From: Escherichia phage LorandFenyves_Bas91
Sequence record: PQ850614.1
Direction: 5' to 3' (one strand)
Length of the DNA: 64,000 nucleotides
The position numbers and the translations under genes are program-made. Below, piece by piece: positions 5,211-60,635 of this stretch. The notes beneath the pieces are model-generated. The model worked only from the letters and a program-made list of their open reading frames with translations, did no database searches and was not told the DNA's origin. The stretch's first letter is position 1. Each line of letters opens with the position of its first letter.

Positions 5211-6269
5211 ATGGCTAATCCAACTTTATTTGTATCGTATGACCAGAATGGTAAAAAACTTTCTTTTGCTAACTGGATTTCTGTTCTGTCCCCTCAGGAT
5301 ACCCCGTTCGTATCTATGACCGGTAAAGAGTCTATCAACCAGACTATCTTTAGCTGGCAGACCGATGCACTGGCAAGCGTTGACGGTAATAACGCACACG
5401 TCGAAGGCTCTCGTGCTGAAGACGGCGAAATGAAACCGACTGTTATCAAATCTAACGTTACTCAGATTCTGCGTAAGGTTGTTCGCGTTTCTGATACTGC
5501 TAACACCACCGCTAACTACGGTCGTGGTCGTGAACTGATGTATCAGCTGGAGAAGAAAGGTAAAGAGATCAAGCGTGACCTCGAGAAAATCCTTCTGTCC
5601 GGTCAGGCTCGTACCGATGTTCTGGCTGACCAGTATCTGACTAACTCCGCAGCTGATCCTGCTGTTGCTGGTCTGAATGACACCCATGCAGCTCGTAAGA
5701 CTGGTGCATTCCAGTTCCTGTGTGCTCACGGTGGTCTGGCTGGTGGCGTTGTTGACAAGACCAAGAATGGTCCTGCTGACCCGGATACTGGTGCAGTAAC
5801 TGTTAAAGTTGCACAGAATGCTTCTAACCCGACCACTAACATCGGTTTTGATGAAGCTGATATCTTTGATATGACTCTGCAACTGTACACCGCTGGTTCT
5901 GAAGCAGATATCATCATGATTAACCCGGCTCATGCTAAGATCTTCGCTGGTCTGCAAGAAAATACTCAGGGTTCACGTAAGCGTATCTTTGAGAACACCA
6001 AGCAGTTCATCTACGAAGTTAACAGCATCACTGACCCGCTGGGCCAGAGCTACAAAATCATCGTTAACCGTTGGATGCCTACCGATGCAGTTTACTTCTT
6101 CCGTAGCGCTGACTGGACTCAGATGGTTCTGCGTGCTCCGAAACGTACTGAACTGGCGAAAGATGGTTCTTACGAGAAGTGGATGATTGAAATGGAAGTT
6201 GGTCTGCGTCACCGCAACCCGTATGCTTCCGGCGTTCTGTTCACTGCTGCGGGAAAGGTGGCGGCGTAA
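5211..6269 (+). CDS. major capsid protein
   Basis: 352 aa; position after scaffold; strong terminator downstream; HK97-fold is expected from position, not verified. Confidence 0.75.
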   Translation: MANPTLFVSYDQNGKKLSFANWISVLSPQDTPFVSMTGKESINQTIFSWQTDALASVDGNNAHVEGSRAEDGEMKPTVIKSNVTQILRKVVRVSDTANTTANYGRGRELMYQLEKKGKEIKRDLEKILLSGQARTDVLADQYLTNSAADPAVAGLNDTHAARKTGAFQFLCAHGGLAGGVVDKTKNGPADPDTGAVTVKVAQNASNPTTNIGFDEADIFDMTLQLYTAGSEADIIMINPAHAKIFAGLQENTQGSRKRIFENTKQFIYEVNSITDPLGQSYKIIVNRWMPTDAVYFFRSADWTQMVLRAPKRTELAKDGSYEKWMIEMEVGLRHRNPYASGVLFTAAGKVAA

Positions 6270-6793
6270 CAGTAGACAGTGTGACTGTTAGCCCTGCGTC
6301 TTTAGCTAGTCTAGAGACAGGGGCTACTCGGCAGTTCACTGCAAGCGCGGAGAAAAGTGATGGTTCTACCGAAACAACTGGCTTTACTTGGTCAGTGACA
6401 GGAGGTGGTTCTATCACTCAGTCGGGTTTGTATGCTGCTCCGAGTGCGTCTCAATCCACTGATGTATCCATTACTGCAACTTTAGAAGGTGTTTCTGGAA
6501 CAGCAACCATTTCTGAAATTGTTGCTCCTGCTCCTACTATTGTAGCTAAGGGTCCAATTACGGGTAAAACTGGTGGTTCCTCCACTAATTTCACTACCAT
6601 GTTTACTGTAACTAATTCTGCTGCTGCGGATTACACGTTTGTTGTAACTCCTACAGAAGCTGGTACAGTAAGCGCAGCTGGTGCGTTAACCTTAGATGCT
6701 GCTGCAAGTGGCGAAGTTACTGTTCAAGCAAGTTTGACAGCTGATCCGTCCATCAATGCAACATGCACTTTTACTGGTGTAACACCTGCTTAA
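5211..6793 (+). CDS. major capsid protein with C-terminal Ig-like (BIG2-type) extension made by -1 frameshift
   Basis: The -1 frame is open from 6191 to 6793 and overlaps the capsid 3' end; slippery heptamer G GGA AAG lies 10 nt before the capsid stop; downstream frame encodes a Thr/Ser/Gly-rich Ig-like domain. Confidence 0.5.
6251..6257 (+). other. -1 programmed frameshift slippery heptamer GGGAAAG
   Basis: X XXY YYZ pattern in the capsid reading frame, same heptamer as the lambda G-T shift site; a short possible hairpin ACAGT...ACTGT follows at about 6269-6288. Confidence 0.5.
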
Positions 6794-6852: not shown

Positions 6853-6861
6853 TAATGTATA
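6853..6861 (+). promoter_or_regulatory. TAATGTATA element, candidate phage-sigma promoter
   Basis: Exact 9-mer 34 nt upstream of the ATG at 6895, directly after the capsid terminator; same 9-mer recurs at 23765 and twice in the 33.5-33.9 kb intergenic region. Confidence 0.45.
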
Positions 6862-23764: not shown

Positions 23765-23773
23765 TAATGTATA
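23765..23773 (+). promoter_or_regulatory. TAATGTATA element, candidate phage-sigma promoter
   Basis: Exact 9-mer 39 nt upstream of the ATG at 23812. Confidence 0.45.
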
Positions 23774-23811: not shown

Positions 23812-26800
23812 ATGGCTAACATTAAACCGTGGGAAGAAGCTTCCAAAGCTCCTGCGTATCTGAATGCCTCTCCGGAGCAACAAGCTCAAATGAGAGAACA
23901 ATATAAGGCAGCAGGTGGCTCTATTCCTGAGGAACAACCAGTAGCACAACCACAACAAGAAGAACGTGGTGCTATAGGTGAGTTTGCTCAAGGTGTGTCA
24001 AATGCTCTTCAATCTGGTGGTGCAAATATTGCAGCTAGTGCTGCTAAAGGTATTGGTGGTTTAGTTGAGATTGGTGAGAATCTAGCTGGAGCACAAACTA
24101 GTTATGGTAAGCGTATCCAAGAGAACTCTCAGAATCTTCTGAAAGAACGTATGGATAAGATTGAGGATGGGATTGGTAAAACTGTAGGTCAGTATGCTGG
24201 CGTTGCTGGTGATATTGGTATGACTGTTGCTAACCCATTGGCTGCTGCTGCTATCATCGCAGGTCGTGAGACAGGTCGTGCATATGCAGACCAAACCCCT
24301 GAAGAGGGAGAAGATAAGTCTATTCTAGATGCAGCCTTAGTTGGTGGTGCTAACTATGCGGCTCAGAGAATCCTTCCGGGTGCTGTCGGTACAGCTGAGT
24401 CCACACTTGGACGTATTGTTCAGAACGTTGCTAGTAACGCAGTGGCTGGTGCTAAAGGTGGTGCTCTTGTGGGTGCTGCTGAAGCTCAGAATAAGCACGG
24501 AGATGACACAACCTTTGCTAATGTATTAGAAGGTGCTATCGAAGAAGGTGCTATGGGTGCTGCATTCGGTGGTGCAGTTGGTGGGGTTCATGGTTTGATT
24601 AGCCGTCCGGATTCTGCTGTCTTCAAGAATACTCCAGAGTATGCGAAGACTGATATTGCTGCTGATGATGAACTAATTCGTAGTGCTAAGAATATTGATG
24701 AACTGAAAGAAGCTTACTCTAAAGCTGAAACTGCTAACGCTGCTTCTGCTCTTAACCTTCTGGATGAGAATGGATTCCGTATTACAGATGCTGTTGCTGT
24801 AGATTCTCCTGCTGCTCAGCGTATTCTTAATACTGACCAAGCTCGTGCTGAGAAAGCTGCTTCTGTTCAGAAAGAACATTCCAACATTCCGGGCCTTAAT
24901 CCTTTAGCTTCTCCTGCTAAGACTCGTGGTAAAGCATTTGCTGATAATGAGCACAACCAGAAGCAGGCTGTTGCTATGAAGGATGCAATGGCTGACTACA
25001 CCAAAGACAACACGAAAGCTCTTACAGATGTTCTAGATAACCTAGACCGTGAATTAACTTCTCTCCGAGCTTCTGGTGATTTTACTGGTAGTCCGATTGA
25101 TATTAAGAATCGTACACAAGCTGACCGTGATTTCATTGATGCTTACAAGACTTTCTACAATGAAGCAAATCGATTCAAAGCTCGTGATGGTGAAGACTTT
25201 AATAACTTTGTAGAGAAAGCTGCTGAACTACAGAAGATGGCTGATAATGTTTCTCCAGAGATGAAGAAAGCTATTGGTGGGTTGAAGAAACTGAAAGGTA
25301 TGCCTGAAGGTTTTAATCCTATTCAAGATGCTTATACTCTGAACAATACAGCTAAATTCATGAGCAACCAAGATCGTGGTTGGACTTCCTTGACTGATGA
25401 TGGATTCCGTGAAGCTTCTTCACCTAGTCTGGTAATGAACACTCTTGGTGCTGCTAAGTATGCTCTGAATCGCTTCTCTTCTCAGCGTGCTCGTTCTCAA
25501 CGTGTTAAGCAACAAGAATCTAACAGTGAAACTATCCGCTCTCTTGCTCGTGGTGATTTGGAAGTTGCTCGTGCTAAATCTACTGCTGATGAAGCTCGTG
25601 CTAAGATGGAAGAAGAACCAGTTGTTGATGACATTAAATTTAAGACGCAAAATGACGTGGAAACCGAACCGGTTCGGGAGCCTTCTTCTAGTACTGTGAC
25701 GGAAGAAAATCTTCCTTCTTCTACTCCTCAAGAAACCCCTCTCACAGCTCGTGATTTAGTTGCGCAAAGACGCGCTATCCGTCAGGCTGAACAGCGTCGC
25801 GCTGAAGAAGAGGCATTGGCTGCTCAAGAAGCTCCGGTCGAACAAGCTCCACAGGCTGAACCTCTCCCTGCTCGTAATCCTCTAGAGGAGCGTCGTGCAA
25901 TGGAACAGCAACGTGCTCAAGAAGAGGCCGCACAGGCTCCAGAACCAACCGTAGAGGAACCAACAGTCAAAGCTGAGCCATTACCTGCTCGTGCTCCTAA
26001 AGCTCCTAAGGAAGCTGTACAGGACGTTAAACCGGCAAGTGGTGTAGAACGTTTAGCTGCTATGTCTAGTGCTGCTCGTCAGGCTACTAAAGATCGTGCA
26101 GAACGCTTTGCTCGTTCTCTGTACTCTAAGGCTGCTAAAGCTAAAGCTACTGCTGAAAACTTCTTGGCTTATAAAGGCGATCCTAAGGAACTGATGCGTC
26201 GTATTCGTCAGGAAGATAATGCTATCAACACTGAACGTCATGAAGAAATGGCTCGTAACCAGCTGGCCTCTCAGCAAGGTATTGCTACTGCTAAGAACAA
26301 CACTGTACGAACTAATTTTGCTGAATGGGTTAAAGAACGTGGTCTGCCAGAAGACATTGCTACTAAGGCATTACGTGCTGAAGAGAAAGGTTTAGGTGGG
26401 AACGTAACTAACTTGGATAGTCTGAAACGTCGTGCTGAAAGGTTGTATCAGAAGCAGCGTGAGGATGAGTTTGATAGACTGTACCAACAAGCTCTAGAAG
26501 AGAACAAAGCTTTCGATAAGAAAGATGCTCCTAAACTGGTTGATCAGAAGAAAGAGCTTCAGTCTGAGATTGATGCTTTGATTGATTCAGAACCTTTACG
26601 TCCTGCTCAGAAAGATGCTATGCGTAAGCTGATGAATGACTTTGTAGATGGGAAGTTTAAATCTTCAGAGAAGGCTGGTAGGGAAGAGGCTTTGGAAGTT
26701 GGTCAGATGAAGGATATTTGGGATGGGTTTATTAACACCTACAACAGAGAAGTGAATGCCTTCAACAAAGCTAACAAGAACTCTCAGTACGAAGCTGCTG

Positions 26801-28235: not shown

Positions 28236-28277
28236 AAAGAAAAGCCCCAACCGAAAGGAAGGGGCTTTATTTGTTTC
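28236..28277. terminator. bidirectional terminator between convergent gene blocks
   Basis: AGCCCC...GGGGCT stem with an A-tract on the left and TTATTTGTTT on the right; the rightward block ends at 28233 and the leftward block ends just downstream. Confidence 0.6.
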
Positions 28278-33595: not shown

Positions 33596-33604
33596 TATAC
33601 ATTA
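33596..33604 (-). promoter_or_regulatory. TAATGTATA element on minus strand, candidate promoter for SSB and spanin operon
   Basis: Plus strand reads TATACATTA; lies about 60 nt upstream of the SSB start in a 416-bp AT-rich intergenic region. Confidence 0.4.
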
Positions 33605-36890: not shown

Positions 36891-38735
36891 TTAGTGTGTA
36901 TGCATCCAGTTAAGTCCAATCTGACAATCAGATGCCAGAGGACATTCCATATTCAGATACTCGCCAGCTTTCTTAACACAAAGCTCGGTGTGCTCTTTGA
37001 GTTTCTGTACATCATTACGGTTTACTGAGAATTGACCTTCATCGTGCATATCAATTACCTTAGCACAACGAACCTTATCTTTCTCAATCCACTTGTTAAG
37101 GAACATCATAGCATATTTCATAACAACAGCACCAGCACATTGCAGGAGTGTGTTAAGGGCTTTATGAACCATAACCTTACCAGTGGCATCCCGTCTCATT
37201 GTAATCTTACGACCATCAACTCCAATCAAGTATCCTTGAGCAGCTTTCTCTGTCATACGATCAATGAGGATTGCAATACATGGATTCTCTGCCAAGAAAC
37301 GTGCTCGCATCACTGAACCTTCGTCAGCCCCACCACCTACAATTGAACCAAGCTTAGCGTCGCCAGCACCATAGTTAAATGCATAGATAAACGTCTTAGC
37401 GTTGTCACGAGTAGGAAGACCAGCAAGTTTCTGGTTGTGGGAGTGGATATCACCTTCAAGGAGAATATCACGATACATAATAGCAGAAGCTAAACCACGT
37501 TCTGCCAGAGCTTTCTTAGCTGGGTTGTTCTCTTCGATTGCCTCAGCAAGCATATCCCTACACTCTTTAATGAGGTAGTGAGCGAGCATACGAAGTTCAA
37601 GTCCAGAACCATCATACCCTAAGAATACTTCTTTACCAGCGGGTATGTAATATTTGTAAGCGCCTACAGGTTTGTCTTTCTTCCCCGGCTTACCTTTCTC
37701 GTAAATTACGTTAGTACCTTTTCGTATATAACAACCATCAGGAACAACGTTAGTAATAACGAAAGGACGAGAGTGATCACTGTCTGAGTTATAGTCAGAC
37801 TCAAACAAACTGCGACACTCGTGACCAAACAGACCACGGGAGGGAATATTAACCACGATACGATGTTTGAATCGAAAAGTCGGCGTAGCGCAGCTGTTAG
37901 CTTCTGCCGAAAGTTTACCATCTTCGCGTTCCTTTGCTATGAGTCCACTGATAAGACCTAGCCTGTGAGCCGCTACAACGCGTCTCTTAAGCAAACTTCC
38001 GACACTCCCTAGCTCACCCCCTAACCCTTCTTCAAGAGTCTCCTCGAGGTTTGTAGGAGCTGTAGGCCACTTGTTTGATGTGGCTAGTGCTTTCTTAATC
38101 TCATCAAACGTTACAGGATTACGGCGATTAGGGTTCAACCCCAAACCAAATACGTAAGCCTTCATGTAATTCTTAGTCTTAAACCTGAAATGCTTTTCTA
38201 AGAACTTCTTAATATCAGCGTCAACCATCTCGGCTGTCTGCTTCTGCTTAGCATTGCCTCGCATCCAAGCAGTATACCATGCTTGGTATGTTCCATACTT
38301 TCTCATATCTTTCTTAATTTCGAAAGTATTCCAAGGCTTCTTAGATACGTTAAACTCTGGAGGAAGAAAGCCCTCATCCATAAGAGCTTCTTTAACTCGT
38401 GCATCTTTCGATGGGTCAAAGTCTACGTATTCGACACAGGTGAAAGCTCCACCAATATCTTCTCTCTTCAGCCCAACCCTATCACAATAGGCTTGAGGCC
38501 ACTTCTGTAAAGCTCCAGACTTCTTAAATGGCTTCATGTAAGTAGAGCCATCTAATCTCATCTTAGGTAAGAGAGGAATCAACTCTCTGTCAATATTAAC
38601 AATAATCTCTTTAAGGAGGTGAACATACCACCGAGCATTTCTTCGGTTGAAACTCACTCCGTGCTTTGCTTGCTTAGAGATTATATCAGCGACAGTCATC
38701 TCTGTCAAAAATGGAAGAGCGTCCGGGTTGCTCAC
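36891..38735 (-). CDS. family A DNA polymerase, polymerase domain only
   Basis: Motif A YDGSGLELRMLAHY, motif B RDNAKTFIYAFNYGAG, motif C IDMHDEG; no 3'-5' exonuclease motifs in this ORF. Confidence 0.85.
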   Translation of the reverse strand: MSNPDALPFLTEMTVADIISKQAKHGVSFNRRNARWYVHLLKEIIVNIDRELIPLLPKMRLDGSTYMKPFKKSGALQKWPQAYCDRVGLKREDIGGAFTCVEYVDFDPSKDARVKEALMDEGFLPPEFNVSKKPWNTFEIKKDMRKYGTYQAWYTAWMRGNAKQKQTAEMVDADIKKFLEKHFRFKTKNYMKAYVFGLGLNPNRRNPVTFDEIKKALATSNKWPTAPTNLEETLEEGLGGELGSVGSLLKRRVVAAHRLGLISGLIAKEREDGKLSAEANSCATPTFRFKHRIVVNIPSRGLFGHECRSLFESDYNSDSDHSRPFVITNVVPDGCYIRKGTNVIYEKGKPGKKDKPVGAYKYYIPAGKEVFLGYDGSGLELRMLAHYLIKECRDMLAEAIEENNPAKKALAERGLASAIMYRDILLEGDIHSHNQKLAGLPTRDNAKTFIYAFNYGAGDAKLGSIVGGGADEGSVMRARFLAENPCIAILIDRMTEKAAQGYLIGVDGRKITMRRDATGKVMVHKALNTLLQCAGAVVMKYAMMFLNKWIEKDKVRCAKVIDMHDEGQFSVNRNDVQKLKEHTELCVKKAGEYLNMECPLASDCQIGLNWMHTH

Positions 38736-39177: not shown

Positions 39178-39462
39178 TCAACCTCTTGGGAATGGCATCA
39201 AAAATTCCACAGCAGATTTAATTTCACTATTGATTCTTGAATCACGATAAGAGATAAACTTACCTTTGCTATCACGTAACATCACATGAGTTCTGGCTGT
39301 TTTGTGAGGGAGTAGTGTGACACTAGTTGGGATAGTATCAATCCCTACAGCGTATTTGTCAATAGTCTTACTTTCAGCCAACAGATAAGACCAAGTACGC
39401 GGTTTCTTCTCCGGGCGGTTGGGGTATGTGTCTCGAATCTGTACCATAGCTAACTTATTCAT
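39178..39462 (-). CDS. hypothetical protein, tandem paralogue A
   Basis: C-terminal half PHKTARTHVMLRDSKGKFISYRDS...FLMPFPRG is closely similar to the adjacent gene. Confidence 0.5.
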   Translation of the reverse strand: MNKLAMVQIRDTYPNRPEKKPRTWSYLLAESKTIDKYAVGIDTIPTSVTLLPHKTARTHVMLRDSKGKFISYRDSRINSEIKSAVEFLMPFPRG

Positions 39463-39463
39463 A

Positions 39464-39718
39464 TTAAACTCCTTTAGGGAATGGAATGAGATTTTCTACT
39501 GCAACACGGAAAGATTTTTCTACGTTCTTATTCTTATAAGAGATAAATTTTCCATCAGCTCCGCGAAGGAGTACGTTAGTGCGAGCTGTTTTTGGGTTAA
39601 TCTCAATCATCCGTTCGATGATCTTGTTTGATTTGTTGTGGTGGTTAGTGAAAGTCCACTTAACAACCTTGCCATCTCTGGTTACATCAAAAATATTTAC
39701 GATTTTTACAATAGACAT
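39464..39718 (-). CDS. hypothetical protein, tandem paralogue B
   Basis: C-terminal half NPKTARTNVLLRGADGKFISYKNK...NLIPFPKG is closely similar to the adjacent gene. Confidence 0.5.
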   Translation of the reverse strand: MSIVKIVNIFDVTRDGKVVKWTFTNHHNKSNKIIERMIEINPKTARTNVLLRGADGKFISYKNKNVEKSFRVAVENLIPFPKGV

Positions 39719-39786
39719 ACTTATTACCTAGGAAGTTTAGTTTGGTTTATATAAAAGAAAAGGCCACCCATTTGGGTAGCCTTATA

Positions 39787-40104
39787 TTACGATGAGCTTA
39801 AAGCTCCTTTGCGTGCTCCAGCTGCTTTTCCAGCTCGATCACCACTTTTGCCGCCGTTTGAACGGTTTGAGCTGACTGATTCAACACGTAAGTTGCTTGA
39901 CGCATTAGAGCCTCCAGACTTGACAGCTCGTTTGTGTCCAACGTCTTTACCTCTGACAGCAGCTTTTCCATCGCGCTTTTCAACGATGCGACGTGCACGG
40001 TGGCGCTGAGCATCTCCGCTCTTGCTCCCAACGCCTGTCTCACCACGGGCAATTGCGGTACGTCTTTCTTGTGCATAATCTCTCTTTCCTACATGGTCTG
40101 CCAT
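39787..40104 (-). CDS. basic low-complexity protein, possibly KGG-repeat stress-protein-like
   Basis: Strong AAGGAG RBS; G-rich first codon positions support this frame over the overlapping 39798..40076 ORF; N-terminus MADHVGKRDYAQERR resembles YciG/YmdF-type proteins (low certainty). Confidence 0.45.
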   Translation of the reverse strand: MADHVGKRDYAQERRTAIARGETGVGSKSGDAQRHRARRIVEKRDGKAAVRGKDVGHKRAVKSGGSNASSNLRVESVSSNRSNGGKSGDRAGKAAGARKGALSSS

Positions 40105-40160
40105 TTAGAACTCCTTAATATATCAGTGTACACTAAGGAGTATACATTATAAGTTACTGT

Positions 40161-40898
40161 TTAAGCTTTCTTTTCCATTGCTTTAACAATCGCCTTACAG
40201 AAACCAGAACGAACAATATCATCCGATTCACCGTCTACAATCTCAGCAAACTCATACAGATCATGTTCATCAATAAAGTTGGTAGCCCAAGTAAGACCAC
40301 TCTCACGACCACGCATATCATGCTGGTTAGTATCACCCATGCAGAACAGCTGAGAGGTTTCTCCCAATCGAGTCATGATTGAGAAGGCTTCATCTTTAGT
40401 GGTGTTCTGGAACTCATCAACAATAACAATAGCATCATTGAAAGAACGACCACGGAGATATTCCAGAGGTACGAACTCAATGTTGCTATTACCAAGTTGG
40501 CATTCATAGAACCCCTTACCATATCGCTGAGTGATAACATCAATGATAGGCATCAGGTATGGTTCAAACTTCTCACGCATTCCTCCCGGAAGTAACCCAA
40601 GAGAGTTGCCCATGCCAACCGAAGGGCGACTCAGAATGATCTTCTGAATCTTACCACTCTTCAGTGCATCAATAACCGTGGAAGTGATTACAAAGGTCTT
40701 ACCACAGCCCGCAGGAGCGTCTGTGAACACAACTTGTTTAGTCTTAATAGCATTGAGTAGCTCAGACTGAAACTGGTTCTGAGGGACTACAGGCTTTGCT
40801 AAAAGCACCTCTTCATACTCTCGCTTACCTTTACGAGTAACAAGTGCTTCCCGACGAAGGTCTTTCCGTGATTCTTTCCGTGATTGACGACGACTCAT
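40161..40898 (-). CDS. phoH: PhoH-like ATPase
   Basis: Walker A GCGKT and conserved PhoH core FVPLEYLRGRSFNDAIVIVDEFQN. Confidence 0.85.
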   Translation of the reverse strand: MSRRQSRKESRKDLRREALVTRKGKREYEEVLLAKPVVPQNQFQSELLNAIKTKQVVFTDAPAGCGKTFVITSTVIDALKSGKIQKIILSRPSVGMGNSLGLLPGGMREKFEPYLMPIIDVITQRYGKGFYECQLGNSNIEFVPLEYLRGRSFNDAIVIVDEFQNTTKDEAFSIMTRLGETSQLFCMGDTNQHDMRGRESGLTWATNFIDEHDLYEFAEIVDGESDDIVRSGFCKAIVKAMEKKA

Positions 40899-60466: not shown

Positions 60467-60635
60467 AAATTGGGCCGCCCACAGAGAGGCGTCATAGTAC
60501 TAAAAGGAGGAGAGAAGAGGGCTTATTTAGCTACCTTTTTCTGTCCGTTTACGAACCAGATAATTGAACCGTCAGGCTGTCGTTGACCGAAGCCTTTCTG
60601 GTTAATCATATCGTCATAAGAATATGCTTTACGTC

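Follow-up and report, generated by a model that had tools for sequence, protein, structure and literature searches.

A Conserved Mini-HNH Protein of Kuravirus-like Escherichia Phages as a Candidate Nicking Enzyme at TACTRTGAC Sites

Phage T5 has been known for some 50 years, and LUZ24-like phages since 2012, to carry nicks at fixed places in their DNA, which raises the question of the enzyme that makes them and of the purpose that they serve. Here, a gene that may bear on this question is described from a stretch of 64,000 nucleotides (hereafter the window) of the ~77 kb genome of Escherichia phage LorandFenyves_Bas91 (PQ850614.1), with the window region matching Kuravirus (phiEco32/SU10-like) E. 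coli podophages at 92–99% identity. The gene, ORF A, encodes a small protein with an HNH-type core (mini-HNH), and is overlapped almost entirely, on the same strand, by a second open reading frame (ORF), ORF B. Overall, it is likely that ORF A is a real Kuravirus middle gene for an HNH-like DNA enzyme of the nicking type, equipped with its own expression signals, and that ORF B is an untranslated shadow. A further proposal, that mini-HNH is a site-specific nickase acting at 5′-TACT/RTGAC-3′, is put forward tentatively, as a possibility raised by correlative evidence.

In LUZ24-like Pseudomonas phages, among them tf, P1-14Or01, Ab22, and Rembedalsseter, localized single-strand nicks are found on one strand only, at 5′-TACT/RTGMC-3′, a motif also given as GTACTRTGAC or WACTRTGAC (PMC3517423, PMC3634792, PMC4482731, PMC11780129). 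The nickase of these phages is not named in the searchable literature, which mentions the motif for Pseudomonas phages only, and it is only there that nicks have been experimentally seen. On the protein side, the closest described systems are the small phage HNH nucleases (PF01844, PF13392), examples of which are Gme HNH (4H9D) of Geobacter, N.phiGamma of phage Gamma, and I-HmuI. Several of these nick one DNA strand, and small HNH proteins are frequently nickases (PMC3592412, PMC3765158); a [CxxC]2 zinc site is present in, for example, Gmet_0936 (PMC3765158).

The ORF A protein matches the phage family phrog_4590, whose function label is "unknown," with E = 7.7e-41 (residues 4–101 against profile positions 2–99 of 100). 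Its counterparts are SU10 gp056, phiEco32 phi32_58, 7-11 AEK81983, GAP52_054, Vp_R1 gp012, and Pseudomonas phage TL gp25, the last of which is labelled "HNH endonuclease signature." These counterparts are of equal length, show 59–100% identity to the ORF A protein, and lie in the same genomic neighborhood, the sole difference being the D56G exchange in E. coli Gordonclarkvirinae. An exhaustive profile search yielded 316 representatives (50% identity clusters, E ≤ 0.001), nearly all of 60–130 residues. The window protein is very basic and, like 203 of 210 family proteins, free of cysteine, and is composed of an N-terminal basic module, a mini-HNH core, and a Gly/Lys-rich tail. The N-terminal module is the most conserved part, with 15 of the 25 invariant columns of a 31-sequence alignment, and is a putative DNA-contact/specificity module.

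Comparison of the core with the small HNH nucleases showed the motif (D)H...GG.N..NL......N with its His/Asn/Asn residues, a length of ~100 residues, and phage origin to be common to both; a strand–strand–helix core like that of these nucleases is predicted for the window protein. The family core consensus reads VDHKKxxKxGGSNxxSNLRVxSxSxN, with H57, N71, and N80 invariant in 31/31 aligned sequences. In the AlphaFold2 model (overall predicted local distance difference test score, pLDDT, 70; core ~80), a beta-beta-alpha topology is predicted, with strand 53–57, which contains His57, strand 72–76, which Asn71 just precedes, and helix 77–84, which contains Asn80. Structural matches in BFVD are small phage "HNHc domain" proteins, with probability 1.0, and the family profile also matches a protein carrying four bona fide HNH_3 domains. 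Sub-threshold Pfam matches were obtained to PF01844 in 24/31 members and to PF13392 in 9/31, with relatives scoring 16–22 bits, the curated cut-offs being 21.4 and 24.8 bits, respectively; an NCBIfam scan of the protein gave no match. Unlike these small nucleases, the phrog_4590 family lacks the [CxxC]2 zinc site, stays under the Pfam gathering scores, and has a conserved RGETGxGSKSGD...RHRARR module and a Gly/Lys tail of its own, together with Gly56 in the E. coli clade. The core is thus best described, from sequence and model, as an HNH signature, and the protein as a cysteine-free mini-HNH variant of a known phage family.

In HNH enzymes, the acidic residue before the catalytic His ("DH") is a metal ligand, as with Cas9 D839, I-HmuI D74, and T4 endo VII D40. 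Position 56 is occupied by Gly (DVGH) in the window and in 19/19 E. coli Gordonclarkvirinae sequences; of 212 family proteins, 162 have Asp here, 23 have Gly, and 27 have another residue. Asp or Glu is found at –3 in 20/23 "GH" proteins versus 94/162 "DH" proteins—counts that are not phylogenetically independent—which hints at the –3 acidic residue as a substitute metal ligand in the former. It has also to be considered that the protein is HNH-derived and no longer cuts, serving instead as an accessory protein, small, basic, and DNA-binding, in replication, recombination, or packaging; TACTRTGAC might then still be recognized, with nicks made by another enzyme, e.g., terminase. Such a role would agree with the loss of the metal-binding Asp throughout the E. 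coli-phage clade, where purifying selection nonetheless persists, with the recurrence of "GH" variants, with strongest conservation in the non-catalytic N-terminal module, and with a shared gene core that likewise includes terminase and flap exonuclease. However, the three motif residues are invariant even in the Gly56 clade, which is hard to explain without catalysis, and the acidic residue at –3 points the same way; we regard a non-cutting protein as rather unlikely.

The nick motif provides a possible link between this candidate nicking enzyme and the LUZ24-like phages. When strand-biased k-mers were ranked in complete genomes carrying full-length mini-HNH, TL, the positive control, gave GTACTATGA (7:0 by strand; expected 0.15), Salmonella phage 7-11 gave ACTACTGTGA (13:1; expected 0.10), and Vibrio phage Vp_R1 gave GTACTGTGA (17:0; expected 0.48). 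Cronobacter phage GAP52 gave CTACGGTGAC, one base off, with the variant TACGGTGAC (8:1; expected 0.05), and its nine copies were placed by frame arithmetic on the annotation in mixed reading frames, one being intergenic, indicative of a DNA signal and not a peptide. In 8-kb loci around mini-HNH from 43 viral contigs, TACTRTGACG occurs in 23 copies in 15 loci, with 21 on the strand of the gene, where ~1 copy is expected from the total length.

In the window, TACTRTGACG is present twice versus 0.11 expected, a number reached by 0/100 shuffles, and both copies share the 13-mer TAGTACTRTGACG. In phage EP335, copy 1 is retained in the homologous position, inside a gapped stretch of 74% identity; the EP335 counterpart of copy 2 reads TACTGTGACG, which differs only at the degenerate R and whose flanks have diverged. 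EP335 has three copies in all, the two at positions homologous to those of the window having diverged and gapped flanks; the site corresponding to the third is predicted to lie outside the window. For the shorter TACTRTGMC, the window count is 2 versus 1.9 expected, and no 9-mer stood out. All complete genomes checked with full-length mini-HNH, the window included, also carry the strand-biased TACTRTGAC motif, which is the same motif, with the same strand bias, as at the LUZ24-like interruptions. The idea that Kuravirus lost the nick motif along with Asp56 was dropped in view of the enrichment of the 10-mer and its retention in EP335. The top strand-biased window k-mers, GCTCGTTCT and TCAGAAGCA, were likewise set aside, being coding strings of Ala-Arg-Ser type without conserved flanks.

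Several further observations concern the motif and its surroundings. A short inverted repeat, TTCTTC...GAAGAA, surrounds copy 1. Kuravirus-like genomes have two to three conserved TAGTACTRTGACG copies, in every case on the same strand as the genes around them; in related records, these were located at 28241 (L072) and at 23765 and 31244 (L073). The Zobellviridae relatives VP41s3 and CW02, which lack the N-terminal module of mini-HNH, have no TACTRTGAC-type motif, which neither supports nor refutes the nickase idea. In Vibrio phage VP41s3, CCTTGNGG and GGACCTTG recur many times with a strand bias that reaches 14:0; these strings are unrelated to the nick motif and probably represent collagen-like Gly-X-Y repeats in a minus-strand structural gene.

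Genomic context was compared among TL, 7-11, GAP52, Vp_R1, and the window. The core common to these five genomes consists of an amidoligase cluster, primase-helicase, polymerase parts, 5′-3′ exonuclease, a few structural proteins, portal, terminase, and mini-HNH, which is the most conserved core protein (58–62% identity versus 21–53% for the other core genes). The mini-HNH gene is always in the replication/nucleotide-metabolism module. In GAP52, 7-11, and two metagenomic contigs, the DNA polymerase gene lies downstream of it at a distance of two to four small genes, also given as 1–3 with Kuravirus included. In Vp_R1, as in the window, it comes immediately behind phoH, and in TL, it comes immediately behind the gene for the polymerase 3′-5′ exonuclease. 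The same locus is found in all close E. coli/Shigella-phage relatives detected and is syntenic in distant genera. By these sequence comparisons, mini-HNH is a syntenic core gene of the whole phage supergroup.

Small phage HNH proteins commonly have terminase-associated or homing roles (PMC3592412, PMC5304195), and HNH homing endonucleases are inserted right beside the mini-HNH gene in some Kuraviruses, so that a terminase-associated HNH of the HK97 gp74 type or a free-standing homing endonuclease has to be weighed. Either is improbable. In the genomes compared, mini-HNH never adjoins terminase or portal genes, and in the window it lies at 39.8 kb, ~38 kb from terL at the window start (~position 52); this replication-module location argues against a packaging HNH. 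In addition, terminase-associated HNH proteins typically have a [CxxC]2 zinc site, whereas this protein has no Cys at all. Against a homing endonuclease, the gene is present and syntenic in all relatives and under purifying selection (dN/dS ~0.13; see below), unlike sporadic homing genes such as the endonuclease VII-like family.

Two other nuclease genes were considered as the source of nicks and rejected. Vp_R1 and the window both have the motif but no endonuclease I-like gene; the endonuclease VII-like gene is one of a promiscuous family of homing endonucleases, with 1,938 phage records, differs in position from genome to genome, and is missing from the window. With these removed, mini-HNH is, as judged from gene content, the only dedicated nuclease-fold gene travelling with the motif. 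A further observation on the endonuclease VII-like family is an unannotated fragment of ~50 residues at 100073–100222 of the Vp_R1 record, between gp131 and gp132 (tblastn E = 2e-10), which may be a missed small gene or the remnant of a homing endonuclease.

A mechanism can be proposed on this basis, in which mini-HNH would most likely bind phage DNA and cut one strand by the usual HNH chemistry. His57 would act as the general base, and a divalent metal would be held by Asn80 and an acidic residue, which in the Gly56 clade is probably Asp54. The conserved N-terminal module would read a site of 9–10 bp, and the two TACT/RTGAC copies of the window would be possible targets. The extreme conservation of the protein parallels the near-invariance of the nick site. 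In evolutionary terms, the nicking system would be ancestral to the whole phiEco32/7-11/GAP52/Vp_R1/LUZ24 podovirus supergroup and not a peculiarity of Pseudomonas phages, with the Kuraviruses keeping a reduced set of three sites and a rewired metal site in which Asp54 replaces Asp56.

Several points weigh against this reading. The window protein itself has no Pfam HNH match, PDB sequence searches with the single protein and with the family profile found no solved-structure match, and the AlphaFold2 model is, overall, of moderate confidence. Gly in place of the metal-binding Asp in a whole clade may weaken catalysis, and the enzyme could be inactive. Kuraviruses have only 2–3 motif copies versus 9–17 in relatives, and the searchable literature contains no report of nicks in phiEco32-like phages/Kuravirus. 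Terminase and 5′-3′ exonuclease, also core nucleases, could make nicks, and what ties the gene to the nicks is correlative evidence.

By itself, a hypothetical phage gene overlapped by a shadow ORF of compositional origin is an ordinary observation, and the gene alone would be of modest interest; its link to a conserved nick motif raises that interest. The LUZ24-type nick motif and its strand bias turn out to be common to Salmonella, Cronobacter, Vibrio, and E. coli phages, and one tiny, unusually conserved HNH-like gene is the only dedicated nuclease-fold gene that these motif-bearing phages have in common. The nickase question thereby becomes a simple experiment on a 100-residue protein which, if the proposal is true, would be a very small nicking enzyme with a 9–10 bp site.

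The assignment of the protein presupposes that ORF A, and not ORF B, is the coding frame. Two minus-strand ORFs of more than 90 residues are indeed present (Table 1), and a first-pass annotation, made from the sequence alone, had favored the Gly/Lys/Arg/Ser-rich frame, which is that of ORF A. Selection analysis was performed on 19 E. coli-phage sequences from three genera, in which the variable columns at ORF A codon positions 1, 2, and 3 number 27, 14, and 56. The ratio of nonsynonymous to synonymous change (dN/dS), taken against the more diverged sequences, was found to be 0.11–0.19 (about 0.13) for frame A, versus an apparent 1.4–2.6 (about 1.6) for frame B. The proportion of synonymous differences (pS) in frame A is 0.27, and third positions are variable at 56/103, without the reduced synonymous change expected of a dual-coding pair; for frame B, pN/pS amounts to 1.6. 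By tblastn, ORF A had matches in 261 phage records, the hosts being Pseudomonas, Aeromonas, Vibrio, Proteus, Salmonella, Cronobacter, and cyanobacteria, and ORF B in 98 records of close E. coli/Shigella phages only; identity also decays faster for ORF B, being 66% in EP335 versus 85% for ORF A. ORF A is annotated as a coding sequence (CDS) in every related record. The codon-position G bias that had been noticed is likewise borne out, with G at position 1 amounting to 0.46 in ORF A, 0.37 in ORF B, and a mean of 0.34 in the 58 window ORFs of at least 90 residues that served as proxy genes for composition comparisons. The GC content at third codon positions (GC3) of ORF B is 0.645, ~6 standard deviations over the gene mean of 0.368. 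From dN/dS, cross-phage conservation, the pattern of variable columns, and the GC3 of ORF B, it follows that ORF A is the gene and that ORF B is without protein-level selection. Peptides specific to the two frames are TAIARGETGVGSK for frame A and SAMEKLLSEVK for frame B.

That both frames are translated, and that the helical-looking ORF B product represents a genuine overlapping gene, is very improbable. ORF B is open with an ATG in 19/19 E. coli-phage sequences, its ATG is preceded by a weak purine-rich stretch, and the +1 frame is open for at least 80 codons in many distant relatives. However, apart from its dN/dS and a GC3 atypical for the genome, the third positions of ORF A, which are the second positions of ORF B, vary freely, and the ORF B ATG is forced by conserved Tyr-Ala codons (TAT GCA) of ORF A. 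Furthermore, in relatives with ORF A at 55–75% identity (E ≤ 1e-30; Pseudomonas, Vibrio, Salmonella, and Cronobacter phages), the +1 translation is without detectable similarity to ORF B. Within the E. coli-phage clade, the Val/Ile codons at risk of creating a +1 stop all end in T or C, and A or G is never seen as their last base, but with only three independent synonymous changes at these codons, this carries little weight.

The length of the shadow has a simpler origin. A stop in the +1 frame requires a codon ending in TA or TG, that is, Leu, Ile, Val, or Met. With 12% hydrophobic residues versus 27% on average, ORF A ranks lowest among the 58 ORFs in this respect, and its shadow frame is, in relative terms, the longest; codons for Leu, Ile, Val, and Met are so scarce in ORF A that the +1 frame stays open. 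A +1 frame open over the same length is expected in 9–23% of recodings (8.6% of trials of synonymous resampling with window codon usage; 23% when the codons of ORF A itself were permuted), so that the length of the shadow ORF is not above chance once protein composition is considered. Among distant relatives, the +1 frame is open in many GC-richer ones and closed in AT-rich ones, a pattern that tracks GC and hence favors composition over a second gene as the cause. What might have passed for an overlapping gene is thereby cleared up, as is the mis-assignment discussed next.

The first-pass annotation had also tentatively likened the N-terminus to the KGG-repeat stress proteins YciG and YmdF (PF10685) and proposed acquisition from a host; neither claim held up. 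With at least one 22-residue repeat above 20.4 bits as the criterion, no KGG match was found for the window protein at E ≤ 10 or for the 31 family members at E ≤ 1; E. coli YciG, the positive control, scored 64.8 bits (E = 8e-18) against the KGG hidden Markov model. BLASTP of ORF A against YciG gave 15.4 bits, with 14/43 identities and a single-pair E of 0.08, and the YciG-like N-terminus MADHVGK is not kept in other family members. Alignment of the family with YciG plus YmdF by hhalign gave a probability of 1.2%, and the 10 columns that it aligned lie in the wrong region. The resemblance to YciG is real but at chance level: both proteins are small, hydrophilic, and Gly/Lys-rich, and are alike at that level in the first 40 residues, whereas the ORF A protein has no KGG repeats or profile similarity, has another conserved core, and is phage-borne, with YciG/YmdF being chromosomal.

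The raised GC content that had been taken to fit host acquisition is real, at 0.516 in ORF A versus 0.425 in the window, a value reached by 0.7% of 318-nt windows and the highest among the 58 ORFs. The excess lies in codon positions 1 and 2 (GC1/GC2/GC3 = 0.62/0.59/0.34), and the GC3, typical of the phage, ranks 42/58, below the gene mean; therefore, the raised GC simply reflects amino-acid composition (Gly, Ala, and Arg codons). In addition, no blastn match to ORF A DNA was found in 5,426 complete E. coli genomes. Because the GC excess is confined to these positions and no E. coli match exists, host acquisition is unsupported, and synteny across the supergroup agrees with this. Composition and a superficial N-terminal likeness are all that speaks for a KGG general-stress protein (YciG/YmdF type) taken from an enterobacterial host, the chance of which we put at next to nil. 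Other segments with 318-nt GC as high as that of ORF A lie at 5456–6515, 24196–24513, and 25618–26156, all in structural genes, with a maximum of 0.547 near 25724.

The middle promoters of phiEco32-like phages offer a comparison for the expression of ORF A. The gp36-sigma motif tAATGTATAtA lies 6–8 nt upstream of start points at phiEco32 middle/late promoters; in SU10, a gp36-type promoter lies between CDS56 and CDS57, and CDS56 is one of the few middle genes shared by the five C3-morphotype phages then sequenced (PMC4281155). An exact match to a motif of this phiEco32/SU10 type, TAATGTATA, lies in the 56 nt that separate phoH from ORF A, followed by the strong AAGGAG ribosome-binding site that the first-pass annotation had correctly pointed out; the records of phages Paul and SU7 have a ribosome-binding site annotated here as well. 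An intrinsic-terminator-like hairpin follows the stop codon, where the SU7 record likewise has an annotated terminator. With these signals, whose use is predicted for the promoter, ORF A looks like a self-contained middle transcription unit. The window holds five exact copies of TAATGTATA, at 6853 (+), 23765 (+), 33596 (–), 33668 (+), and 40141 (–), of which those at 33596 and 33668 are 72 nt apart and face away from each other, as in a divergent promoter region.

Table 1. Positions in the window of ORF A, its signals and codons, neighboring genes, and nick-motif copies.
Feature	Positions	Strand	Description
ORF A	39787–40104	minus	105 residues, ATG start; CDS of mini-HNH protein
ORF B (shadow)	39798–40076	minus	92 residues, ATG start; +1 frame of ORF A
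N-terminal basic module	39988–40083	minus	codons 8–39; RDYxQERxTAIARGETGVGSKSGDAxRHRARR
Predicted HNH-type (beta-beta-alpha-metal) core	39853–39951	minus	codons 52–84; KDVGHKRAVKSGGSNASSNLRVESVSSNRSNGG
Gly56	39937–39939	minus	in place of usual Asp
His57	39934–39936	minus	catalytic-type residue
Asn71	39892–39894	minus	catalytic-type residue
Asn80	39865–39867	minus	catalytic-type residue
Shine-Dalgarno AAGGAG	40111–40116	minus	6 nt before ORF A ATG; read from sequence
Promoter motif TAATGTATA	40141–40149	minus	exact match; gp36-sigma middle/late type
Intrinsic-terminator-like hairpin	39750–39783	minus	10 bp stem, 6 GC pairs, T tract; 4 nt past stop
Nick-motif copy 1, TAGTACTGTGACG	25689–25701 (10-mer 25692–25701)	plus	in gene of 1488-residue virion protein, coding strand
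Nick-motif copy 2, TAGTACTATGACG	60490–60502 (10-mer 60490–60499)	minus	intergenic, strand of local genes
phoH	40161–40898	minus	directly upstream of ORF A
Family-A DNA polymerase gene	36891–38735	minus	downstream of ORF A

The order of genes on the minus strand is phoH, ORF A, two small paralogous ORFs, one further small ORF, and the DNA polymerase. The spacers that flank the mini-HNH gene, 40105–40160 and 39719–39786, are insertion hot spots in relatives: in some phages, the phoH/mini-HNH spacer holds two additional small ORFs (~367 bp) or an HNH homing endonuclease, and in other relatives, a 495-bp HNH endonuclease gene lies directly 3′ of the mini-HNH gene. The two small ORFs just 3′ of ORF A (39178–39462 and 39464–39718, both minus) are tandem paralogs with a common C-terminal block, KTARTxVxLRxxxGKFISY...AVExLxPFPxG (54% identity over 41 residues, E = 1e-15); the label "autotransporter adhesin" borne by one of them in some GenBank records looks spurious.

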